DNA from: an uncultured Chloroflexia bacterium | GTDB taxonomy: Bacteria; Chloroflexota; Anaerolineae; CG2-30-64-16 | Assembly (NCBI GenBank): GCA_963810095.1 | Contig: CAWEMM010000006.1 | Location: 1,419,353-1,483,352, forward strand | DNA: 64,000 nucleotides | Reading direction: 5' to 3' | Part shown: positions 4,781-63,990 of the stretch, piece by piece | Numbering within the stretch: the stretch's first letter is position 1 | Layout: every line of letters begins with the position of its first letter | Program-made: the position numbers and the translations under genes | The notes under the pieces: generated by a model | Databases searched by the model: none | What the model saw: only the letters and a program-made list of their open reading frames with translations | Told to the model about the DNA's origin: nothing

Positions 4781-5100
4781 GATGTTTGTTGGGGGCCGTC
4801 TGGCCCCCAACGCCCCCGACGGGGGGCTGCGCCCCCTCGTCCCCCAAAGGTTAAGGGGACGCGTGGCTTCCGCCAATTGGCCCATTTGAGCGTCCACATG
4901 GCGGGGCCAGACGGAAGCGGCTTGCGGGAAACCGGCATTTTGTGGAAGCACGGTTCTGATGCCGACTGCCGTGAGCGAGTCCGGCTGCTGCCCGCTGTCA
5001 ACACGGCCGGGGGCGTTGACCTTGGGGGTTTCGGGGGCAAGGCCCCCGAGGCGGGGGCGGCGGGGCAAGCCTGCCCCCGCCAAGACAAGATGTAGCAAGG
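4781..5100. repeat. dispersed GC-rich hairpin repeat element (REP/MITE-like), copy A
   Basis: Palindromes TTGGGGGCCGTCTGGCCCCCAA, GGGGCTGCGCCCC, GGGGGCAAGGCCCCC; same ordered motifs recur at 14950-15130, 42889-43287 and 58385-58476/61603-61745. Confidence 0.65.
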
Positions 5101-14949: not shown

Positions 14950-15130
14950 TTTTGCGGGGGCGCTCTTGCCCCCGCCGCCCCGACGCGAGTGGCTGCCCAC
15001 GACCGACTCATTGGCGGGGAGCGCTCTCGCCCCCGACGCGAGGGGTTGCCACGACCGACTCATTGGCGGGAGCGCTCTTGCCCCCGCCGCCCCCGACCAG
15101 GGGCTGCGCCCCTTGGAACCCCAAAGGCAG
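14950..15130. repeat. dispersed GC-rich hairpin repeat element, copy B with internal ~50-bp tandem duplication
   Basis: GGGGCTGCGCCCCTTGGAACCCCAAAGG and GGGGGCGCTCTTGCCCCCGCCGCCCC motifs; duplicated unit CCACGACCGACTCATTGGCGGG. Confidence 0.6.
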
Positions 15131-35298: not shown

Positions 35299-35381
35299 GC
35301 CGAAGTGGCGGAACGGTAGACGCGACGGTCTCAAACACCGTTGGGGGTTGCCCCATGTGGGTTCGATTCCCACCTTCGGCA
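35299..35381 (+). tRNA. tRNA-Leu (anticodon CAA)
   Basis: Cloverleaf: acceptor GCCGAAG/CTTCGGC, anticodon stem ACGGT/ACCGT with loop CUCAAAC, long variable arm, T-arm GGTTCGATTCC. Confidence 0.85.
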
Positions 35382-39037: not shown

Positions 39038-40180
39038 ATGCTGAGCTACAAGCTGACCGACGAACAGGAAATGATCCGGGACATGGCCCGGAGTTTTGCA
39101 AAGAAGGAAATTCTCCCCGTCGCCGAGCACTACGACACGAGTGAAGAGTACCCCTGGCCGATCATCAAGAAGGCCAATCCGCTCGGCTTGATCAGCTCCA
39201 ACATTCCCGAAGCCTACGGTGGGCCGGGCTTTGGCGTCCTCGAAGAGTGCATCATCAACGAGGAACTGGCGTGGGGTTGCTCGGGCATCCAGACCGCGCT
39301 CATGCTGAACAACCTGGCCGCCTGGCCCATCATTTTGGCCGGGAACGAGGCGCAGAAGCAGAAGTACCTCACCCGGCTGACGGCAGGCGGCGAGCTGGCA
39401 TCGTACGGGCTGACCGAGCCGGCGGCCGGGTCAGACGTGGCAGGCATTCTGACGACCGCGGTCAAGAAGGGCGACGAGTATTATCTGAACGGCACCAAGA
39501 CGTGGATCACGAACGCACCCGTCGCGAGTTTCTTCATCATTTTTGCCAAGACCGACCCCGCGGGCCGGCACCGCGGCATGACCGCCTTCATCGTCGAGCG
39601 CAACTGGCCGGGGGTCAGCGTCGGCAAGCCCATCCGCAAGCTGGGGCAGCACGCGGCCTGGACGGGCGAAATCGTGATGGAGGACGTGTGCGTACCGGCC
39701 GAGAACCGGCTGGGCAACGACGGCGACGGGTTCATGATCGCGATGAAGGTCTTCGATCGCTCGCGGCCGCCCGTGGCAGCCGCCGCGGTGGGGGTGGCGA
39801 GGCGGGCGCTGGACGAGGCAACGAAGTATGCCATGGAGCGCAAGGCATTCGGCAAGCCGATTGCTGTGAACCAGGCGATCAGTTTCATGCTGGCCGACAT
39901 GGCGATGAACATCGAGGCGTCGGAGCACCTGACCCGGCACGCCGCGTGGCTGATCGACCAGGGCAAGTCGAACGTGAAGGAAGCGGCCATGGCCAAGGCC
40001 TTTGCGGCCGACACGGTAATGAAGGCGACGACGGACGCGGTACAGGTCTTCGGCGGCTACGGCTACAGCGCTGAATACCCTGTCGAGAAGCTGATGCGCG
40101 ACGCCAAGATTTACCAGATTTACGAGGGCACGAGCCAGATCCAGCGGGTAATCATCGCACGCGAGCTGACAAAGGGCTGA
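39038..40180 (+). CDS. acyl-CoA dehydrogenase
   Basis: 380 aa; typical ACAD N-terminus [20 protein letters not shown] and C-terminal catalytic region YEGTSQIQR. Confidence 0.9.
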
Positions 40181-42888: not shown

Positions 42889-43287
42889 GGGGGCTTTCTT
42901 TTGTTGGGGGCCGCCGGCCCCATCCATTGGATATGTCTTCTGTTGGGGGCCGCCGGCCCCCAACGCCCCGGCCGAGGGGCTGCGCCCCCTCGACCCCCAA
43001 ACTTACTCGGGGAACAGTTCATTTGTGGAGCAACGGCTGGGGCCCACGGACCGCTGCGGGGCTGCCAGTTGCGGGCTTGCACGAGGCCGGCATTTTAGGA
43101 AATGCGCGAGCAATAGCCTCCTCGGGGACATGCAGACGCCGATCTCTTTGGCGATAACTACGCCAGGAGCGTAGCAATTGGGGGTCTCGGGGGCAACGCC
43201 CCCGAGGCGGGGTTGGCAGGGGCCGGCCGGCCCCTGCCAAAAGACCGGAACCTCGAAGCGGGGTGGACGGAGGCCGCCGGCCCCTGC
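42889..43287. repeat. dispersed GC-rich hairpin repeat element, copy C (longest)
   Basis: Two TTGGGGGCCGCCGGCCCC modules, GGGGCTGCGCCCCCTCGACCCCCAAA, GGGGGCAACGCCCCCGAGGCGGGG, GGCAGGGGCCGGCCGGCCCCTGCC palindromes; colinear with copy A. Confidence 0.65.
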
Positions 43288-53672: not shown

Positions 53673-53976
53673 ACATGCGTGTGGAATGCGGGCCGGGGCC
53701 GGTGGGACAGCGCGCCGGTTGGCGTGGAGCAGACGGCGCGCCTGGCCGCTCGCGGTGTACGACCTGCTGCCCGAGAACGGCGTCCCGGTGGGCAAGGCGC
53801 GCGTGGTCGCGCTGGCCGAGCAGGCCGGGCATCCCGTGCGAAGCGCTGCCGCGGCCTGTTCTGGATCATGCTTCAGTTCGACCTGGTCCGGATGTCGCGG
53901 CGCGGTGCCGAGCCAATGCCGACGTAGACCGGAGACGTCGAAGAACGAGGGGTCGTGGATAGCTGGGGAGAGCATC

Positions 53977-55530
53977 ATGACCGCAGTCAAGACCCCGTGG
54001 CGTCAATCGATGCCGGATTTCCTCCAGTTTCTGGATGGAACGCTGGGACACAAGGTCAAGCTCCACAAGGAAGTGCTCGGCTATGACCTGTATCTCGTCG
54101 ATCTTTCGGACTGGAAGCTGCGCTTCTCCGACCGCACGCCCTTGATCATCGTCAAGGAAGCGCGATCTGGCGTCGATGAGTGCCCGCGAGCTCGCGCAGA
54201 GCCTCGCCGAGGTGGTCCGCGGCCAGTCGCTGGCAGAGCGCAACCCCATCGTCGTCGTGCAGGGACCCGGCAGAGCGAACTCAAGGAGCAGCTGCACGCC
54301 GACGTACCAGCCGCTGCTGGTGCTGGACGAGGCGGACGTGCAGGCCGTGCGCGAGTCGCGGCGGCCCTCGGGCGAATTGCTCGACCGGCTCGCGCCGCAG
54401 CTCGACCTGTCGCTCCTGACGCCCTACGAGACGAGCAAGCCCGTCACCGGCTCGCGCTTCTTCGGCCGGGAGTTCGAGGTGCGCCGCATCCTGCAGACGC
54501 GGCGACAGCAATTTCGCCATTATGGGCATCCGGCGCATCGGCAAGACGTCGCTGATGCGCGAGATCGAGCGCCAGCTGAAGGAGCAGGCGCAGGAGGCCG
54601 AGAGCGAAGAGACGCTGGAGCGCATCATCTTTATGGATTGCAGCGCCATCGCGTCGCCCGAACAACTTCATCCAGGAAGTCGTGCGCAAGCTGCGGCCGC
54701 AGGAGCTGACGCGGCTGTCGTCCAAGCAGTACCCGATCTTCTTCCCCGATTTCCTCGAGCGGATGGCGCAGCGCTACGGCGGCCCGATCATGTTCTTCCT
54801 CGACGAGTTCGACAAGGTGCTTACCTGGCACTACGAGGACGACTCGCTGCTCAACGCGCTGCGGGCGTCGAGCAACCAGGGTCACTCGCGCTATATCGTC
54901 GGCGGCTTCCGCGATGTGATGCGTGCGTTCAGCGACCTGGAATCGCCCCTGTACAACTTCGCGCGGCCCATCCGCCTCAAGGAGTTCAGCCGGGAGCAGG
55001 CCGCGGCGATGATTCTCGGCCCGCTGGAGAAGTTGGGCGTGCAGTTCGAGCGCCGCAACGACGTGGTCAACCGCATCTTCGACGAGACCGCCGGCCAGCC
55101 GAACCTGATCCAGTTCTACTGCAGCATCCTGGTCGAGCGGCTGGACCGCGAGGGCAGCCGGCGCATCGCATCGCTCGCCCGAGAGCCTGTTCGACGTCTA
55201 CGGCAACGACGATTTCCGCGCGTTCGTGCTCAGCACCTTCATGGATAACACGACGCACCTGGAGAAGGCGATCGTGTTTGCGGTGATGGCGGACCTGGGC
55301 GCGGAGCATCCATTCGGCGTCCAGCAGATCGACGGCGCGCTCGAACGTCGCGGGCGTCGAAATCCCGCTGTCCGACCTGGACCTTGCCTGCCGCAACCTG
55401 GAGCTTGGCGGGCACCTTCACCTCGCGCGGGCCGATGTTCCGCTTCGCGACGCCGGTTTTCCCGCGCATGCTGAGCGAGAACTACGACGTAGACTACCTG
55501 TTCCGCAAAGTGCTGCAAGAGGGCATCTGA
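53977..55530 (+). pseudogene. archaeal-type AAA ATPase (Arch_ATPase/ATPase_2-like) with multiple frameshifts
   Basis: FFGREFEVRRIL, GIRRIGKTSLMREIERQL (P-loop), PIMFFLDEFD (Walker B) across ORFs 53686, 54176, 54522, 54682. Confidence 0.45.
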
Positions 55531-55532
55531 CA

Positions 55533-58386
55533 ATGAGCGCTAGCATCGAAGCCTGGCGGATCGTTCCCTACGAAGGAGGCGCATCGCCCGTTCAAGAAGG
55601 TGCGGGTGCGCGACGAGGCCGCGGGTGCGCGCGGTCGTGCGGCACCTGATGAACGACGAGTGCGTCGCCTTGCTCGGTCCGCCCATGAGCGAGAAGAGCC
55701 ACCTGCTGCGGGACGTGGCGGAGGCGCTGGAGCAGGGCGGTCGCTTCCGGCCGCTGCATATCGACTTGTGGCGCACACGATCGAACGATGAGGCCGCCTT
55801 CTTCACCAGCCTTGCCGAGTCTGCTGGCCGACGAGCTGCGGGACGCCGGCGCCGCGAGTCCCGACGAGCCGGCCGAGCACGCGCGGTTCCAGGGTTATCT
55901 CGCCGCTTGCGAATGCGAGCGGCCGCAGCCTTGCGCTGCTGATCGATCACCTGCAGGCGCTGCCGCACGACCTCGTCCACAGCCTGCTGCGTCGCCCTGC
56001 GCGCGGCCTACATGGAGCGCGAGGCCGACGCGCCGCACAGCCTGGTCGCGGTGGTCACCGGCGGCATCAACCTCGTCGGTCTGTCCGTCCGGCCCGACCT
56101 CGCCGTTCAACATCGCCAAACCCGTGGTCGCGACACCGCTGACCCTCGAACAGAGCCGCGCGCTGGCCGAGGCGACGCTCAAGCGCTGGAGTGCTCGGCA
56201 TCCGCCAACGGCATGGACCGCTTGCTGAGCCTGGGCGCAGGCGACCGGTACCTGATTCCGCGGCTCTGCGCCGACAGCTCCGAACTGGTCAGCTTGCACC
56301 GCCTGCACCGCGTGACGTCGGCCATTGCGGATCGCGCCGGCGCGGGCGCTCGTCGCCCGCGGACGCGGCCGCCGCCCGTTCGCGCCGCCATCCGCATGAT
56401 CGAGGAAGACCCGGACACGGTGCTGGACGTGCTGCACCTGCTCGACCACGGCTCGCTGCCGCGCTCACGCTCGCGCCAGATGCCGACGCGCACCGGCACG
56501 GACCGGCTGCAGCTCTCGGGCGCGGTGGTCCTGGTCGGATGGGTGCTACGGCTTTATGAACGAGGCGTACCGCGAGGCGTTGGCCGCGCACTTCACCACC
56601 GACCGGGTCGGGCACATGTTGCGGATTGCCGGGCCGGTGGAGCGAGGCGATCGCCTATCTCGCGCCGCAGCGGGCGCGCGTCGCGCGTCCGCAGCTGCTC
56701 GAAGCCATCGTCCAGATCGATCTATGCGAGCTGACTCGTCCGAACAGGCGTATCGGGCTGCTGGCCGACGGCCTGCGGCTCGGCTTCGGCCTGTCGGACA
56801 TCGGCATCTACTGCGGCGCTGCCGGCCGACTGCTCAGCTCGACCGCGTCTATCCGCCCAAGGACGGCGGCCCGAGGAGCACGTCGACCTGCGCGATCCCG
56901 GGTGCGTCGAGGCCCAGACCTTCAACCTGGGCAACTATGCGCTGCGCGGCACCGCGGATGAGGCGCGCCTGGTCGTCGCGCTGGCATCGGCCAGCCGGCC
57001 GCTCGGCGTCGTGACGATCGAACGCTATGTGCAGAACCGCGATCCGCACGAGCTGCCCGACGAACTGCCCGACCTGCTGCGTTTCCTGCAGCACGCAGTC
57101 CGGGGCGCTGGAAAACGTCATCACTCGGGCTGCCTACCGCGCCATCGGACAGGCCGTGCTGGATGCCAAGGCCATGCAGCCGACCGTGGAGCGGGTGCTC
57201 GAGACGGTAGCGGAGGCGCTTGGGCTGCGACTACGGCGCCCTGTATCTGCGGGATGAGACCGCCGCCAGCTGGAGATGGCCGCAGCAGTCGGCAGGGTGG
57301 TGACGGAGGAGTGGCAGGCGCAGGCGCGCTTTCCCCTCGACGGCCGACACCCCGCGGTCACCGCGCTGCTGGAGGGGCGGATGTTGACGGCGCGAGGGGG
57401 CGAGGACGCAGAGGACCGCGTGCTGCACGACCGTTTCGGCCTGCACCGCTACCTGCGCGTCTTCCTGCCTCTGCTCGCCGGCGGCGAACAGCTCGGCACG
57501 CTCGAACTGGGCTACGCGAGCCGGCCGCATGCGCATGTCGGATGAGCTACAAGCGGACGCTGGTCGAGTTCGCCGACCAGGTGGCGATCGCGGTGCATAA
57601 CATGCTGCTGCTGCGGCGGACGGACGAGGCGCTGGCACGCGCAAGCTGGCCGAGCTTGTCGGTGGGCCGCGAGATTCAGCTCAGCCTGCTGCCGAAGGTC
57701 ACGCCGACCGTTCCCGGCTGGCAGTTCGCGGCCATGTACGAGGCCGCCCGCACCGTCGGCGGCGACTTCTACGACTTCTGCGAATTGCCGGGTCCGCCCG
57801 CATCGGCTGGGCGTCGTCATTGCCGATGTGGCGGACAAGGGCGTGCCGGCCGCGCTGTTCATGGCGGTCAGCCGGACGATCATTCGCAGCGTCGCGCTTC
57901 ACCGGCCGCGGCCCGGCCGTCTGCCCTGATGCGAGCGAACCAACTGATTCTCGCCGACAGCCAGGCCGACCTGTTCCTGAGCGCGATCTACCTGGTGCTC
58001 GAGACCGACAACGGGCGCGGATTTCGTTCAGCAACGCGGGGCACAACCGGCCGCTGCTGGTACCGCGCTGCGGACCGCGCAGCTCACGCGAGCTGACCCA
58101 GCGCGGCATCATCCTGGGCGCGTTCGACGAGATCACGCTGCAGGACGACACGGCTGGACCTGGCCGCCGGCGACGTGCTGGTGCTGTACACGGACGGCGT
58201 CACGGACGCGCTCAACGCGGACGGGCGAGGAGTTCGGCGAGCAGCGCCTGTTCGACGTGGTGCGGGGCAGCGCCGCACGGCAGCGCGCAGGAGATCCTGT
58301 GGGCGATCACGGGCGCGCTGGCGGGCTTCATCGGCGACACGGAGCAGGCGGACGACGTGACCTGCGTCGTGATCAAGAAGGACTAG
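55533..58386 (+). pseudogene. large regulatory protein: degenerate P-loop NTPase-like N-terminus, GAF domain, PP2C/SpoIIE-type phosphatase C-terminus; many frameshifts
   Basis: LLGPPMSEKSHLLRDV, LALLIDHLQAL, GAF-like DYGALYLRDE..., PP2C motifs [43 protein letters not shown], ends VVIKKD. Confidence 0.4.
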
Positions 58387-58476
58387 GCCTTTGTTTGTTG
58401 GGGCCCGGATGACCCTCAACACCTGGTTGCATGGGCCGCCTTGCTGTTGGGGGCCGTCGGGCCCCCAACGCCCCCG
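58385..58476. repeat. dispersed GC-rich hairpin repeat element, copy D left half (split by IS insertion)
   Basis: CTGTTGGGGGCCGTCGGGCCCCCAACGCCCCCG matches copy A 4788-4824; right half resumes at 61603. Confidence 0.6.
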
Positions 58477-58562
58477 TGTATAGACCGGGGACATAGTAGA
58501 CAGTCGTTCGGAGACATGGTAGACGCTAGAATGGGAATAACTGCCACCGGAAGGAGGCTGAT

Positions 58563-59705
58563 ATGCCCTGGCGAGAGGCAAATGCCATGTCCTTACGACT
58601 TGATTTCGTGACCCGAGCTGGTCACGAAGCTGCTAACGTGCGGGCCCTGTGCCGCGAGTTCGGTATCAGCCCGAACACTGCGTACAAGTGGCTTGTGCGC
58701 TACCAGGCGGCGGGGCCCGCGGGGCTGGCCGATCGCTCACGGCGCCCGAACGCAGTCCGAGCCGACACGCCGCCCGGCCGCGAACAGTTGGTGCTGGCGA
58801 CGCGCCAGGCCCACCCGGCCTGGGGCGGCCGCAAGCTCAAGGCCTACCTGGAGCAGGCCGGCTATGCGGACGTGCCGGCAGCTTCCACCATCACAGCCAT
58901 TCTGCGCCGGCACGGGGCGCTGGATGACCAGGAGGGCGCTCAGCATCGCGCCTTTCAGCGTTTCGAACGTGAGGCGCCCAACGAGCTGTGGCAGATGGAC
59001 TTCAAGGGCCATTTTGCGCTCGGGGATGGTACGCGCTGCGACCCCTTGACGGTCCTCGACGACCATGCGCGCTTCCTGTTGGCGCTGGACGCCTGTGCCG
59101 ACGAGACCCGCCGCACGGTGCAGGCCGCGCTGACCGGCGTCTTCGAGCGCTACGGCTTGCCCGAGCGCATCCTGTGCGATCATGGGCCACCGTGGGGCGC
59201 CCCCAATGCCGGCGACGTGTACACGACGTTGAGTGCGTGGCTCTTGCGGCTGGGCATCGGGGTCGTGCACGGGCGGCCCAAGCATCCGCAGACGCAAGGC
59301 AAGGACGAGCGATTGCATCGCACGTTGCGGGCCGAGTTGCTGCGCCGGCAGACGTTCGCCGATCTGCCGGCCTGTCAGCCCGCCTTCGATACCTGGCGGC
59401 AGATGTATAATGAACAGCGCCCGCATGAGGCGCTAGCCATGCAGGTGCCGGCGGCCCGCTATCGGCCCAGCCCGCGCCCGTGGCCCGCCCGCCTGCCCGC
59501 GATCGAGTATCCGGCCAGCGACCGAGTGCGCCGGGTGCAAGATAAGGGCCAGATCAAAGTCGGCGGCCACGAGTTTCGCATCGGCAAAGCCTTCATCGGC
59601 TACCCGGTGGGCCTCCGGCCCACGAACCAGGACGGCTGCTATGACGTTTACTTCTGCGCCCAGCGCATTGGCCAAATTCAACTATCCGCCGGGCAACGGA
59701 TTTAG
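58563..59705 (+). CDS. IS481-family transposase (DDE/rve integrase)
   Basis: 380 aa; HTH N-terminus, rve core with HGRPKHPQTQGKDERLHRTL. Confidence 0.85.
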   Translation: MPWREANAMSLRLDFVTRAGHEAANVRALCREFGISPNTAYKWLVRYQAAGPAGLADRSRRPNAVRADTPPGREQLVLATRQAHPAWGGRKLKAYLEQAGYADVPAASTITAILRRHGALDDQEGAQHRAFQRFEREAPNELWQMDFKGHFALGDGTRCDPLTVLDDHARFLLALDACADETRRTVQAALTGVFERYGLPERILCDHGPPWGAPNAGDVYTTLSAWLLRLGIGVVHGRPKHPQTQGKDERLHRTLRAELLRRQTFADLPACQPAFDTWRQMYNEQRPHEALAMQVPAARYRPSPRPWPARLPAIEYPASDRVRRVQDKGQIKVGGHEFRIGKAFIGYPVGLRPTNQDGCYDVYFCAQRIGQIQLSAGQRI

Positions 59706-59709
59706 CTCA

Positions 59710-61518
59710 GCCTGTGGGTAAGGGGCTGTCCGAAAAGTAATCGGGCGGCCCCTTTTTTGCGTGCTTTTCTCGCGTTCTTTAAGGATTCATGGTTTAATGG
59801 GGGCATGAAACGCAAACCTGCTGCCCCCGTCTTCAAGCCCTACACGATGGCTCAGCCGCAGTTGCTGCCGCCGAGCCTGGATGAGTTGATCGAGCCGGAC
59901 CACCTGGTGCGGGTGGTAAATGCGGCGATCGACCAGTTGGATTTGCGGCCGCTGCTGGCGCAGTACCCCGGCGGCGGGACGTCCAGCTATCATCCGCAGA
60001 TGCTGCTGAAGGTGTTGGTGTACGCCTATTGCAGCAAGATCTACTCGTCGCGGCGGATTGCGGCGGCGCTGCGGGAGAACATTCACTTCATGTGGTTGAG
60101 TGGCGGGAACCGGCCGGACTTTCGCACGATCAACGACTTTCGCGGGCAGCGGATGAAGGGCGTGATCGACGCGGTGTTCGCCGAGGTGCTGCAGTACCTG
60201 GTCGAGGCGGGGTACGTGCAGTTGGAGCACTACTTCGTCGACGGGACGAAGATCGCCGCCGATGCGAACCAGCACAAGGTGGTGTGGGCCAAGCGCACGG
60301 CGCGTTACCAGCAGCGGGTGCGGGAGCAGATCGCGTGAGTTGCTGCGGCAGATCGAGCAGGTGAATGCTGACGAGCAGGCCGAGTACGGCGATGCCGATC
60401 TGGAAGAGCGGGGCCGGCGGTGGGGGTGGCGAGATCGACTCGGACGCAACTCAAGGAGCGCATCGACCAACTCAACCAGCGGCTCCGCGAGCGTCAGCAC
60501 CCCAAGCCCGAAGCCCAGGCAGCCGAGAAGGCGCTGAAGAAACTGGCGACGGATTGTCTGCCGCGGTTGGAGAAGTACGAGCAGCAGACCGCGACGCTGG
60601 CGGGGCGGTCGAGCTATGCCCAGACCGACCCGGACGCCACGTGCATGCGGATGAAGGAAGACCGCGGCGCCGAGCGGCCCTGGCCCAAGCCGGCCTACAA
60701 CGTGCAGGTGGGCACGGAAGGGCAATTCATCGTCGGGTTCAGCGTGCACGACCAGGCGGGCGACACCGGGTGCCTGATCCCGCATCTGGAGCAGGTGCGC
60801 CAGAACACCGGCGGCCGCTTACCGCAGAACGTGGTGGCGGATGCGGGGTACGGCAGCGAAGAGAACTACGCCTATCTGGAACAGCAGCAGGTGGGCAACT
60901 ACCTCAAGTACAACACCTTCTACCAGGACACGCATCATTACCGCGACCCGGCCGTGCTGCGGGCGCACCAGTTCCGGGCCGAGAACTTCGCCTACGACGC
61001 GGCCACCGACACCTTCGTCTGCCCGGCCGGCCAGCGGCTGCACTTCCAGTACACCACCCGCTACACCAGCGACAACGGCTACCTGAGCGACCGCCGCATC
61101 TACGAATGCTTCGCGTGTGCCGACTGCCCGCTGCGCAGCCAGTGCACCCGGGCCAAAGGCAACCGCCAGATTCGCATCAGTTTCCGCTTGCTCGCCTACC
61201 GCAAGCAAGCCCGCGACAACCTGACCAGCGCCGACAGGTGAGCGCTTACGCGCCGCGCGCTCCGTCGAGGTGGAAACCGTCTTCGGGCATATCAAACAGA
61301 ATATGGGCTTCCGGAGATTTCACTTACGCGGGCGGGCGAAAGTGAAGACCGAATGGGGGCTCGTGAGCATCGCTCACAACCTGAAGAAGGTGGCGGCCGC
61401 ATAGGCCGCTTTTTTTCTCCGCTTTCCGCGAGCTCCAACTCATCTCCCGCTGACTCCGAATCGGCACAAGAAAGGGGCTGCCTGGATGTTCTTTCCAGAC
61501 AGCCCCTTACCCACAGGC
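59710..61518 (+). mobile_element. IS1182/IS5-like element nested inside the IS481 element, 21-bp terminal inverted repeats GCCTGTGGGTAAGGGGCTGTC
   Basis: IR at 59710-59730 and reverse complement at 61498-61518; inserted immediately after the IS481 transposase stop. Confidence 0.65.
59805..61404 (+). pseudogene. IS1182-family transposase with ~3 apparent frameshifts
   Basis: N-terminal DUF772-like segment (ORF 59757..60338), DDE segment (ORF 60420..61241: VVADAGYGSEENY), C-terminal ...HIKQNMGFRRFHLRG...AHNLKKVAAA in a third frame. Confidence 0.6.
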
Positions 61519-61602
61519 CCGACGCGACGACACCATTCTTTAAGGTGTTCAGGTGTCTACGATGTCCCCGAACACCTGTCTACGATGTATTCGGTCCATA
61601 CA

Positions 61603-61745
61603 CCCCGACGAAGGGCTGCGCCGCTTCGACCCCCTAATTTGCTCGGGCAGCACCGCATCCGCCGTCTAACGCGCACGGCTGCCGGCCGGGACGGGGCCGA
61701 CAGTGGCAGGCTTGCACGAACCGACGCGATGGAAAATGTACGTCA
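61603..61745. repeat. dispersed GC-rich hairpin repeat element, copy D right half
   Basis: GACGAAGGGCTGCGCCGCTTCGACCCCCTAA and GGCTTGCACGAACCG match the middle of copies A and C. Confidence 0.55.
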
Positions 61746-63990
61746 GGCGGTTTCGCTTTGCATCAAGGGCGGCGGGGGCCCGCGGGACCGGGCCAAAGCG
61801 GGAAACCGCCGCCCGTCACAGGCAGGGTGCCGGGCCCACGCAGGACGTCCGACTTGAAGCGCGGGATGATACGGTAGCCCGCGTCGGGCGTCTTCTCGCC
61901 CACGGACTGCCCCAGGACGCCCTGCCGCGGCCCACATCTGCCCGATCTGCACGTAGGGGCGGCGCCAGGGCAGGCTCTCGGGGAAGTAGATGCGGATCAG
62001 CCCGGCCCTGTCTTTCAAGACCAGGCCGCGCGTCTCGTACTTGACCACCGCACCCACGACCTGCACGAGCCTCCCCTCGTTCGCTTCTGCCAGGTCCGCC
62101 GAGGTGACCGGCTGCGGCGCGACAGCCTTGCCTTCGCCCAGCACTGTTAAGTAACCGGCATCGGGGACAGATAACTCGGTTTCTCCGTAGAAGTCGCGGG
62201 TCCAGCCCGTGACCCGCACCCGGCTGCCCGGCTTCAGCGTGGGATAGTCGCCTTTGCGCAGGTAGACCTTGATGCCCCCTGTCTCGTCCTGCAAGTAGAT
62301 CGTCTTCGCAATCAGCCCGGGCGGGAAAGTCACGGTGCCGCTGACGACGGCGCGACTGTCTACCTTCGCCGAGCGGGCCGCCGCGACGGTTTGCGGAACC
62401 GGCGGGGGCGTGGCTTGGGGCGGAGCAGGCGCCGCGGGCGCAGGAGGCGGCAGCAGGCGGTTCGGCTGGCCCGGCGTCGCCTCGCAGTCGGACGTCCACC
62501 CGCCTACGCCGTCGGTGTTCCGACAGTAACTGCGGTCTGCGCCCGGCCCATGGTCATAGGCGAAGCGGTCTGCCAACGTCCCGTCGCTCCTGGTGAGGGT
62601 CACCGAGTCGCGCCAGTCGCTCAGCGAGAGACGGGTCTGGCCGCGGAAGAACAGCATGAAGCTGTGGGGCCAGATCACGGCGCCCGCGGGAATGCGGTAG
62701 CTCGCGGCCTCATCGCCGATCTGCCAGCCCTCCAGGGGGACGGCGCTGCCCGTCGGATTATGCAACTCGATCCATTCGTCCGAGAAGTTCGCCGTGCCGT
62801 CGCGATCCCAGTCGACCGAGCGCGGGTCAGGGAGGATTTCATTCAGCTTGACCTTCAGCGCATCGGGCGGGAGCGGGGTGGGGGTCGGCGTCTGCGTGGA
62901 CGTGGGCGAGGCCGTGACGGTGCCGGTGGGAGTGCGCGTTGGCGTGACAGTGCGCGTGGGTGTGGAGGTGCGCGTGGGCGTGACGGTACGCGTGGGTGTG
63001 GAGGTGCGGGTGGGCGTCGGCGTGGCGGCGGGATCGCGGGTTGGGGTCGCGGTCGGCGTTGCGGTGGGCACGAGGGTCGTGCGCTCGCCTGGGTTGGGCG
63101 CTTGGCGGGTCCAGTCCGCCGCGCTGTCACTGTCCTGGAGGTTCCAGCGGCCTAGTGACTCGCCGGCACGCACTTTCTCGCAGGGCGGCTCGTTAATGCT
63201 CGTGTCCGAGCCGTAGCTCATGGCGTCGACGACGGTGGCGTCGGGTGCGAGGAGGCGGACCGCGTCGCCGGTGTTGCTCAGCCCGTTGCCAATGGCGCCC
63301 TCGAGGCTGACGAGCAGGCCCGAGAAGCCGGGGAAACTGGCGCGGAACGCGGCTTCTTTGGCGGCAACAACGGCATATTCGCCGGGCAGCAGGCTGAACT
63401 CGGGCAGCGCGTCCTGGCCCGTGTTGTCGCCGATGCGCCAGCCCGAGAGCAGGACCGCGTCGCCCGTGGGGTTCACGATCTCGACGAACTCCCAATCGGC
63501 ATCCGCGCCGTCTTGGATAGGGTCGTACAGCACTTCACTTAGGAGCAGCTTCGGCCAAGCCGCCGGATACGGGAGAGTTGGCGAAGGCGTCGGCGTGGCT
63601 GTGCGGGTGGAGGCGGGCGTGCGCGTGACTGTAGGCGTGCGGGTGACCGTGGGACTTGGGCCGGCCGTTCGCGTCGCAGCCGGCGTGCGGGTTGCGCTCG
63701 CGGTCCGAGTCGGAGTCCGCGTGAGGGTTGCAGTCCGCGTGATTGCGGTCCGCGTTGGGCTCGCGGTGCGGGTTGGGCTGGGGGTGCGGGTCGGCGTCGG
63801 AGTGGGCGTGCTTTCGATCGTCCCGCTCACGCCGGGATTGGGGACCGATTGCCCATACCAGTCTTCTGCCGTGCCGGTGTCCATGTCGCTGGGGATACGC
63901 GACAAGGACTCGCCGGCCGCTACCCCGGGGCACGCCGGGTCGAACGCCGTCGTATCTGAGCCATAGCTCATCGCATCTGCCAGCACGCCG
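61743..63990 (-). CDS. large secreted protein with two lamin-tail-domain (LTD) repeats, Pro/Thr-rich linkers and C-terminal OB-like domain; 5' end outside window, C-terminal reading frame uncertain
   Basis: LLSEVLYDP...WEFVEIVNPTGDAVLLSGWRIGD and KLNEILPDP...EWIELHNPTGSAVPLEGWQIGD LTD motifs; PTRTPTPT linkers. Confidence 0.65.

Follow-up and report, generated by a model that had tools for sequence, protein, structure and literature searches.

Repetitive extragenic palindromic (REP) sequences are known targets of insertion sequences (ISs): a survey of REP-targeting ISs (Tobes and Pareja 2006, PMC1525189) covers members of the IS3, IS110, IS4, IS256 and IS5 families but contains no mention of IS481. 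A second kind of structural target is known from the IS1182 family, in which IS1272 and the IS1272-driven TnSha1 insert into hairpin stems, produce no target-site duplication (TSD) and delete the target stem-loop partially or completely, the replaced structures measuring 21–85 bp (PMC5678879, PMC4923244). Here we describe a locus in an uncultured Chloroflexia bacterium at which an IS481-family element lies within a REP-like repeat and itself carries an IS1182-family element. The locus sits near the end of a 64,000-nucleotide stretch of DNA (hereafter the window; contig CAWEMM010000006.1 of assembly GCA_963810095.1). Our reading – one in which we have considerable confidence – is that it records two transpositions, one after the other and both directed at DNA hairpins, and that the elements themselves are ordinary nested ISs.

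As catalogued in ISfinder, the IS481 family (type member IS481 of Bordetella pertussis) is characterized by a transposase of the rve/DDE type encoded in a single open reading frame (ORF), with an N-terminal helix-turn-helix and a leucine zipper, by terminal repeats that start with TGT, by a short TSD and by a length of about 1.3 kb. The outer element resembles the family in each of these respects. Its parts are as follows.

58477–61602, plus strand: IS481-family insertion sequence (boundaries, terminal repeats, sibling comparison).
58477–58531, plus strand: IS481 left terminal inverted repeat, TGTATAGACC... (repeat finder; outer 18 nt conserved in the clade).
58563–59705, plus strand: IS481-family transposase gene, a single ORF of 380 aa (family models; DDE residues).
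61548–61602, minus strand: IS481 right terminal inverted repeat, ...GGTCCATACA (repeat finder; ends of sibling and relatives).

As found, the outer element measures 3126 bp; without the inner element it comes to 1341 bp, and to 1366 bp once 25 lost nucleotides, described below, are restored. Its left end (TGTATAGACCGGGGACAT...) starts at 58477, directly after the repeat (...TTGGGGGCCGTCGGGCCCCCAACGCCCCCG) stops at 58476, while the right end (...GGTCCATACA) closes at 61602 and is followed first by CCCCG (61603–61607) and then by ACGAAGGGCTGCGCC. The repeat finder returned terminal arms of 56 nt with 79% complementarity (58476–58531 and 61548–61603), which after trimming of the flanking G/C become an imperfect inverted repeat of 55 nt running from TGTAT to ATACA. 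A first-pass annotation of this DNA, made by a model from the letters alone, had described TGTAT-initiated imperfect repeats of about 58 bp, and on realignment these held up at 55 nt and 79%. The motif GACATNGTAGAC is present twice at either end; one of the four copies has a single mismatch and the others are exact.

The 380-aa ORF matches the Pfam models rve, rve_3, HTH_32 and LZ_Tnp_IS481 (PF13011 among the matches), scores 265.1 bits against the NCBIfam IS481 equivalog NF033577 (cutoff 224) and retains all three catalytic residues (D146, D206 and E249). It is a single ORF with no programmed frameshift – the trait separating IS481 from IS3 – and is colinear with relatives of 372–411 aa. Judged by these features the outer element is a member of the IS481 family, as the first-pass annotation had it. 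The protein departs from its relatives in two places. Residues 63–68 (58749–58766) are NAVRAD, whereas the relatives all show a (T/A)xSP-type motif there, such as the TRSPSH of the closest sibling (L096), a patch that stems from a compensated −1/+1 indel pair not found in that 98.9% identical copy; and residue 160 (59040–59042) is D, compared with H in all six aligned relatives. Because the gene keeps its DDE residues and both ends survive, the composite could in principle still move as a single unit.

The sequence struck by the outer element belongs to a REP-like repeat of about 68 nt, of which the window holds six copies: five uninterrupted, and thus empty sites, and one interrupted.

4785–4852, plus strand: uninterrupted REP-like copy, empty-site comparator (profile, alignment, fold).
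5020–5083, minus strand: uninterrupted REP-like copy, inverted partner of 4785–4852 (profile).
15063–15127, plus strand: uninterrupted, more diverged REP-like copy (profile, alignment).
42938–43006, plus strand: uninterrupted REP-like copy, empty-site comparator (profile, alignment).
43175–43242, minus strand: uninterrupted REP-like copy, inverted partner of 42938–43006 (profile).
58443–58476, plus strand: left half of the interrupted REP-like repeat (nhmmer profile positions 2–35).
58472–58476, no strand: left TSD copy, CCCCG (empty-site alignment, profile overlap).
61603–61607, no strand: right TSD copy, CCCCG (empty-site alignment, profile overlap).
61603–61642, plus strand: right half of the interrupted REP-like repeat (nhmmer profile positions 31–70).

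Like REPs and REPINs, these units are short, GC-rich, imperfectly palindromic, repeated and extragenic – all six copies fall between ORFs – and they occur about once per 10 kb here, often as inverted pairs. Unlike classical REPINs they are units of some 68 nt that fold as two small GC hairpins, and their pairs, spanning about 300 bp, are longer.

The evidence that one such unit was split by the IS481 element is base-precise. The repeat (...GGGCCGTCGGGCCCCCAACGCCCCCG) breaks off at 58476 and continues at 61608 as ACGAAGGGCTGCGCC, with CCCCG present at both 58472–58476 and 61603–61607. When a profile built from the uninterrupted copies was run over the window, the two halves were recovered at profile positions 2–35 and 31–70, an overlap of exactly five positions that equals the TSD. 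A rebuilt empty site with a single CCCCG aligns without gaps, and colinearly across the junction, with 4787–4833 (94%) and 42940–43011 (86%). The break at 58476 and resumption at 61608, the 5-bp duplication CCCCG and the REP-like nature of the target, all proposed in the first-pass annotation, are borne out by these junctions, by the two profile halves and by the five uninterrupted copies. The left half, which includes hairpin 1 (TTGGGGGCC-GTCG-GGCCCCCAA), has a fold of −14.8 kcal/mol (z = −3.6). The interrupted repeat is situated just downstream of a gene for a SpoIIE-type phosphatase.

Copies outside the window share the ends of the outer element. A database entry is 100% identical to the transposase, and relatives at 76–82% identity lie on short contigs (L001–L005) where the element has the same termini as here. 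A cluster-mate at 98% identity led to L096, an uninterrupted copy of 1367 bp with 98.9% nucleotide identity to that of the window. The locus of L096 is unrelated, flanked by a multicopper oxidase gene on one side and glnE on the other; the element is inserted in a further member of the REP-like family found in the window, at a position offset by 2 nt, and has a 5-bp TSD of its own, CCGCC. The existence of copies at unrelated loci, in a different gene neighbourhood and with a separate TSD, marks the IS481 element as mobile. When more distant relatives were sought by scanning a single genome for each species, 80 loci (L010–L089) were recovered at 51–58% protein identity; they come from many phyla, and in most of them the outer 18 nt of the left end are identical or nearly so. 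The first-pass annotation had regarded different ends in other IS481 copies as the observation that would undo it; the ends are instead conserved, both in the sibling and, on the left, across most of these relatives. The uninterrupted IS481 copy and the empty target sites that it suggested looking for also exist, as L096 and as the five repeat copies in the window.

The inner element proved less straightforward, and its limits depend on comparison with copies elsewhere.

59710–59721, plus strand: remaining left arm of the IS481 3′ hairpin, GCCTGTGGGTAA (comparison with L096, L001–L005 and L006–L009).
59722–61506, plus strand: IS1182-family insertion sequence of 1785 bp, no TSD, in place of the hairpin's apical 25 nt (ends of L006–L009; empty site in L096).
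59722–59737, plus strand: IS1182 left terminal repeat, GGGGCTGTCCGAAAAG (ends common to L006–L009).
59805–61404, plus strand: IS1182-family transposase gene, broken (reconstruction, family model, intact relatives).
61491–61506, minus strand: IS1182 right terminal repeat, GGGGCTGTCTGGAAAG on the minus strand (ends common to L006–L009).
61507–61518, plus strand: remaining right arm of the IS481 3′ hairpin, TTACCCACAGGC (comparison with L096, L001–L005 and L006–L009).

Here the repeat finder reports a 28-nt inverted repeat (93%) at 59710–59737 and 61491–61518, the outer 21 nt of which are perfect (GCCTGTGGGTAAGGGGCTGTC, at 59710–59730 and 61498–61518, with none expected by chance). The first-pass annotation took these 21 bp for the ends of an IS1182 element of about 1.8 kb (59710–61518), which would then simply have inserted a few bases past the IS481 stop codon. 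The perfect 21-nt repeat is certainly there, but as a description of the element this account is extremely improbable. Four independent IS1182 copies from unrelated contexts (L006–L009, about 90% nucleotide identity) match the window only from GGGGCTGTCCGAAAAG at 59722 to CTTTCCAGACAGCCCC at 61506 and diverge exactly at those two positions; moreover, the outer 12 nt on each side are found in uninterrupted IS481 relatives that have no IS1182 element. Because the four copies share only 59722–61506, the inner element is 1785 bp long with imperfect 16-nt terminal repeats (GGGGCTGTCCGAAAAG and GGGGCTGTCTGGAAAG, 14/16 matching). The “perfect 21-bp inverted repeat” consists of leftover 12-bp stem arms that abut the nine outermost bases of the inner element. 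Neither a TSD nor palindromic leftovers of a convincing kind were found around L006–L009.

What the arms belong to is evident from the uninterrupted relatives. In L001–L005 the transposase stop codon is immediately followed by a 49-nt hairpin, GCCTGTGG(A/G)TAAGTGGACAGCC-CTGC-GGCCTGCCCACTTACCCACAGGC, whose outer arms correspond to the outer 12–13 nt of the supposed 21-bp repeat. In L096 the hairpin is intact (GCCTGTGGGTAA-GTGGGCAGGCCACACGCCTGCCCAC-TTACCCACAGGC), with a perfect 22-bp stem and a 5-nt loop, and folds as DNA at −30.1 kcal/mol (z = −9). Set against L096, the window lacks precisely the 25 nt at the tip (GTGGGCAGGCCACACGCCTGCCCAC), which in L096 make up the 5-nt loop and the 10 bp of stem next to it; the IS1182 element takes their place, with no base duplicated. 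The two cuts lie symmetrically on opposite arms of the stem, both between pairs 12 and 13. The hairpin tip also suggested another idea, namely that in relatives it mimics abutted IS1182 ends through a shared 8-mer (GGACAGCC); this was dropped, since the tip in the closest sibling, L096, does not have that 8-mer.

Insertion in a hairpin stem, absence of a TSD and partial loss of the stem-loop are the hallmarks of IS1272-type events, and the comparison of the window with L096 displays all three. The likeness to staphylococcal IS1272 and to TnSha1–TnSha2 extends to the IS1182-family transposase, to terminal repeats of about 16 nt and to the amount of target hairpin deleted, 25 nt being within the published range. 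There are differences: the bacterium in question is distantly related, environmental and of high GC, the hairpin struck belongs to another IS instead of forming a terminator, the stem has kept its outer 12 bp, and the transposase in the window reads frameshifted. Because the geometry matches the published IS1272/TnSha1 insertions, we infer a single stem-loop-replacing insertion in which deletion and insertion would have been simultaneous. One might instead suppose two separate events, the hairpin tip being deleted first, for instance by slippage at the palindrome, and the IS1182 element inserting later, in the ordinary manner, at the scar. Long perfect palindromes are prone to deletion, and there is one empty site with which to compare; but the full hairpin is kept by all six uninterrupted members of the subclade (L096 and L001–L005), and an element positioned exactly at the deletion, with symmetric cuts in the stem and no TSD, is the documented IS1272/TnSha1 signature. 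We consider separate events improbable.

Two hairpin-directed insertions would then have followed one another. For the first, the boundaries, the TSD, the empty sites and the sibling in the same repeat family are matters of direct observation: an IS481 element of about 1367 bp when intact would have entered between the C-run and the G-run of the repeat's second small hairpin, with cuts staggered by 5 bp whose repair would yield the duplicated CCCCG. The second left an exact 25-nt replacement and no TSD: the 1785-bp IS1182 element would have entered the 49-nt hairpin, the stem being cut between base pairs 12 and 13 and the apical 25 nt removed without duplication, so that the leftover 12-bp arms and the nine outermost IS1182 bases would together come to imitate a perfect 21-bp inverted repeat. 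In its interpretation the first-pass annotation was thus largely right, and it is the boundaries, repeats and insertion mode of the inner element that required correction. Its statement that the inner element had disrupted the IS481 element applies to the accessory 3′ hairpin, which is broken, and overstates the case for the transposase gene and both ends, which are untouched.

The inner coding region is split over several frames. Joined, the pieces give a protein of 531 aa with 92–94% identity, over the full length, to intact proteins of 531–532 aa, and this reconstruction scores 449.8 bits against the NCBIfam IS1182 equivalog NF033551 (cutoff 270); Pfam DUF772 and DDE_Tnp_1_6 match the fragments. 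From these matches the inner element is assigned to the IS1182 family, and the second family name given in the first-pass annotation stands, as does its report of a nested element with a frameshifted transposase. Relative to four intact relatives there are four frame-breaking indels, at about 60334 (+1), 60407 (−2), 60442 (+1) and 61235 (+1); the intact frame needed by an autonomous copy is thus lacking, and the gene as assembled here reads as a pseudogene. The two ends of the IS1182 element each form an inward-facing, terminator-like hairpin with a T-rich tail behind it (59720–59760 and 61473–61508), the left terminal repeat forming part of such a hairpin at 59720–59754, ahead of TTTTTT. A third terminator-like hairpin comes after the transposase stop codon (61392–61417). 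These structures may shield the transposase gene from outside transcription.

The window and L096 are not alone in associating an IS481 element with a hairpin. Among the 67 related loci for which both flanks were available, the TSD is 5 bp in 21 and 6 bp in 17 (38/67 together); L001–L005, being short metagenomic contigs whose two flanks may stem from different copies, were left out of the TSD calls. With striking frequency the two flanks of a relative together make up a GC-rich palindrome, as where CCCTCTCCCCCGCGGG precedes the element and CGCGGGGAGAGGG follows it. For 39 non-redundant rebuilt empty sites we asked how often a perfect stem of at least 6 bp is centred within 8 nt of the insertion, with 390 random positions from the same loci (flanking 3 kb, mostly coding DNA) as controls. 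Such a stem is present at 24/39 sites (62%) compared to 26/390 controls (6.7%), an odds ratio of 22 (Fisher p = 9e-16), and the median folding energy is −31.3 kcal/mol at sites versus −24.7 kcal/mol at controls (p = 1.7e-7). A cruder measure, pairing of at least 5 bp across the insertion point, gave 85% of sites and 77% of controls and no separation; the apex-centred measure was adopted in its place. One Nitrospirales genome has a repeat that was struck at an identical position in both orientations (L035 and L041 versus L038 and L053).

We infer from this a preference of the IS481 transposase for hairpin or palindromic targets. The association could also be chance or secondary, the elements surviving better in intergenic DNA rich in GC hairpins without any targeting. 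Because the controls were not matched for intergenic location, part of the stem enrichment could indeed be survivorship, and the failure of the cruder measure to separate sites from controls is what this explanation would lead one to expect. Survival does not, however, account readily for insertion points lying within a few nucleotides of the hairpin apex in 62% of sites; and the fact that two siblings struck one repeat family 2 nt apart, along with the hits in both orientations in the Nitrospirales genome, argues for a real target preference. Survival as the whole explanation is, in our judgement, unlikely. The elements are highly expanded in some long-read metagenome-assembled genomes among the 80 loci returned, among Dehalococcoidia (CAXXWW01, CBDEFX01; L031–L066), with at least 16 loci in one genome, and among Nitrospirales (OZ242346; L017–L053), with at least eight in one genome, many of the expanded copies lying, in both orientations, within REP-like hairpins of the host's own.

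IS481 itself reportedly duplicates a 6-bp NCTAGN site. The clade to which the window belongs differs in making 5–6-bp TSDs at the tips of GC-rich hairpins that share no common primary sequence. In this it resembles IS1397 and ISKpn1, of the sister family IS3, and other REP-targeting ISs, which target REP or palindromic units specifically and make short duplications (PMC1525189), although the targets of the clade are diverse hairpins over many phyla and not the REP of one species. Nothing relevant on REP or hairpin targeting by IS481 elements was found in the literature searched. The locus points, then, to an IS481 clade that prefers REP-like hairpins, occurs in many phyla and has expanded greatly in some genomes.

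Several observations weigh against the view that both insertions were directed at hairpins. The rebuilt target in the window has a perfect stem of only 4 bp, compared with 6 bp in the intact copy at 4812, the target hairpin being weak after divergence; and in the minimum-energy fold of the intact repeat the insertion point falls at the foot of hairpin 2, not in its loop. Among the relatives, 17 of the 67 loci have no TSD and 11 more have only 1–3 matching bases, probably due in part to fuzzy end-calling or to recombination between copies. For the inner element L096 is the only empty-site comparison, and the 25-nt loss and the insertion may not have been simultaneous; L006–L009, having no leftover stem arms, neither support nor contradict hairpin targeting. 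Finally, the source assembly, which is probably a long-read metagenome, has many apparent frameshifts near the locus, and read-level errors or even a mis-join there are possible.

This last point could be pressed further: the nesting, or at least the four frameshifts, might be a product of long-read mis-assembly or indel errors. The host genes at 53.7–55.3 kb and 57.0–58.4 kb have partial Pfam domains and repeated frame switches, and the compensated −1/+1 patch in the IS481 transposase has no counterpart in the 98.9% sibling. Yet the junctions are base-precise and consistent with a known mechanism, the two elements share no repeat able to drive a mis-join, and three of the four inner indels lie outside homopolymer runs. 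We give an artefact slightly less credence even than separate deletion and insertion events. The frameshifts of the IS1182 transposase taken by themselves may be assembly errors; because nearby host genes also look broken, real decay and indel errors are not separable here.

Those neighbours are an nSTAND1-type NTPase gene (53686–55286) and the SpoIIE-type phosphatase gene (57011–58386), both with partial Pfam model matches, overlapping ORFs and repeated frame changes, and a gene for a large PT-rich protein on the minus strand (61743–63986) whose C-terminus reads out of frame. A frame plot of third-position GC (GC3) contains many frame switches, mostly at ordinary gene boundaries, and only those at 53.9–55.4 kb and 57–58.4 kb are backed by partial Pfam matches. 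Either this is a pseudogene-rich stretch or the fragmented host genes reflect assembly indel errors.

The hairpin struck by the inner element deserves attention in its own right. It forms the 49-nt, near-perfect core of a module of about 80 nt that, in the subclade of the window, separates the transposase stop codon from the right terminal repeat – a feature setting the subclade apart from IS481 itself. The distance from stop codon to element end is 137–138 nt in the subclade versus 38–71 nt in relatives at about 57% identity. Because in these wider-clade relatives the right terminal repeat comes directly after the stop codon, we regard the module as an acquisition. It occupies 59706–59721 and 61507–61547 in the window and 7144–7225 in L096, and comprises the hairpin plus CCC..GACGACGAC.

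When metagenome contigs were searched for its pattern, the hairpin recurred together with CCCGACGACGAC in six contigs (L090–L095) that have no IS481 ends; in L091, the sole contig of the six whose ORFs were examined, it overlaps the stop codon of a different, unrelated rve-type transposase gene. Across nine distinct sequences of the 20-bp stem, the strand antisense to the transposase gene forms 100% standard pairs (11 of them G-U), compared with 93.9% on the sense strand, where A·C mismatches occur, and three stem pairs show compensatory changes. The hairpin arms contain the DnaA-box-like TGTGGATAA, which we take to be the DnaA-box consensus. Rfam holds no family for the 49-nt hairpin, returning only a sub-threshold microRNA look-alike.

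That the module is shared with an unrelated rve-type element, pairs perfectly on the antisense strand only, has three compensatory pairs and carries DnaA-box-like arms supports the view that it may be under selection as a functional unit that passes from one IS family to another and acts from the antisense strand. It might block transcription entering the element, serve as an antisense RNA or be a site for a host factor. It is tempting to go further and see in the IS481 clade, across its many phyla, a structure-guided transposon that reads the tips of hairpins or cruciforms and not sequence, with the hairpin module as a selected unit exchanged between families. We advance this joint proposal tentatively, as one that may well prove wrong. 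Were it true, the structure-guided IS481 clade would constitute a further IS family among the known REP-targeters.

In itself the locus is routine: ordinary mobile DNA, whose novelty is modest because the two events are consistent with elements of known kinds and with a mechanism already published. Its interest lies partly in the lesson that a perfect terminal repeat can be an illusion, composed of leftovers from the arms of a target hairpin joined to the true ends, such that automated IS annotation would set the boundaries wrongly. It is, in addition, a clean and base-precise case, outside the staphylococci, of IS1272-type insertion into a hairpin stem with deletion of the target, and suggests that this mechanism is general to the IS1182 family.

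The REP-like units themselves show further organization. Inverted pairs measure about 300 bp from end to end (4785–5083 and 42938–43242 in the window; 7283–7545 in L096), and between the members of a pair lies a partly conserved core, GGCTTGCACGA..CCGGCATTTT. From sequence, this arrangement suggests that the units are not isolated REPs but form a composite akin to a miniature inverted-repeat transposable element or a REPIN. For the interrupted copy (58443/61642) the only partner is a degenerate one near 61760–61785.

Elsewhere in the window, an ORF at 39038–40180 was first taken for a second IS481 copy, being likewise 380 aa long; it is actually an unrelated acyl-CoA-dehydrogenase-like gene, and the agreement in length is a coincidence. 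A tRNA gene at 35299–35381 is the sole Rfam match at the gathering threshold in the whole window.

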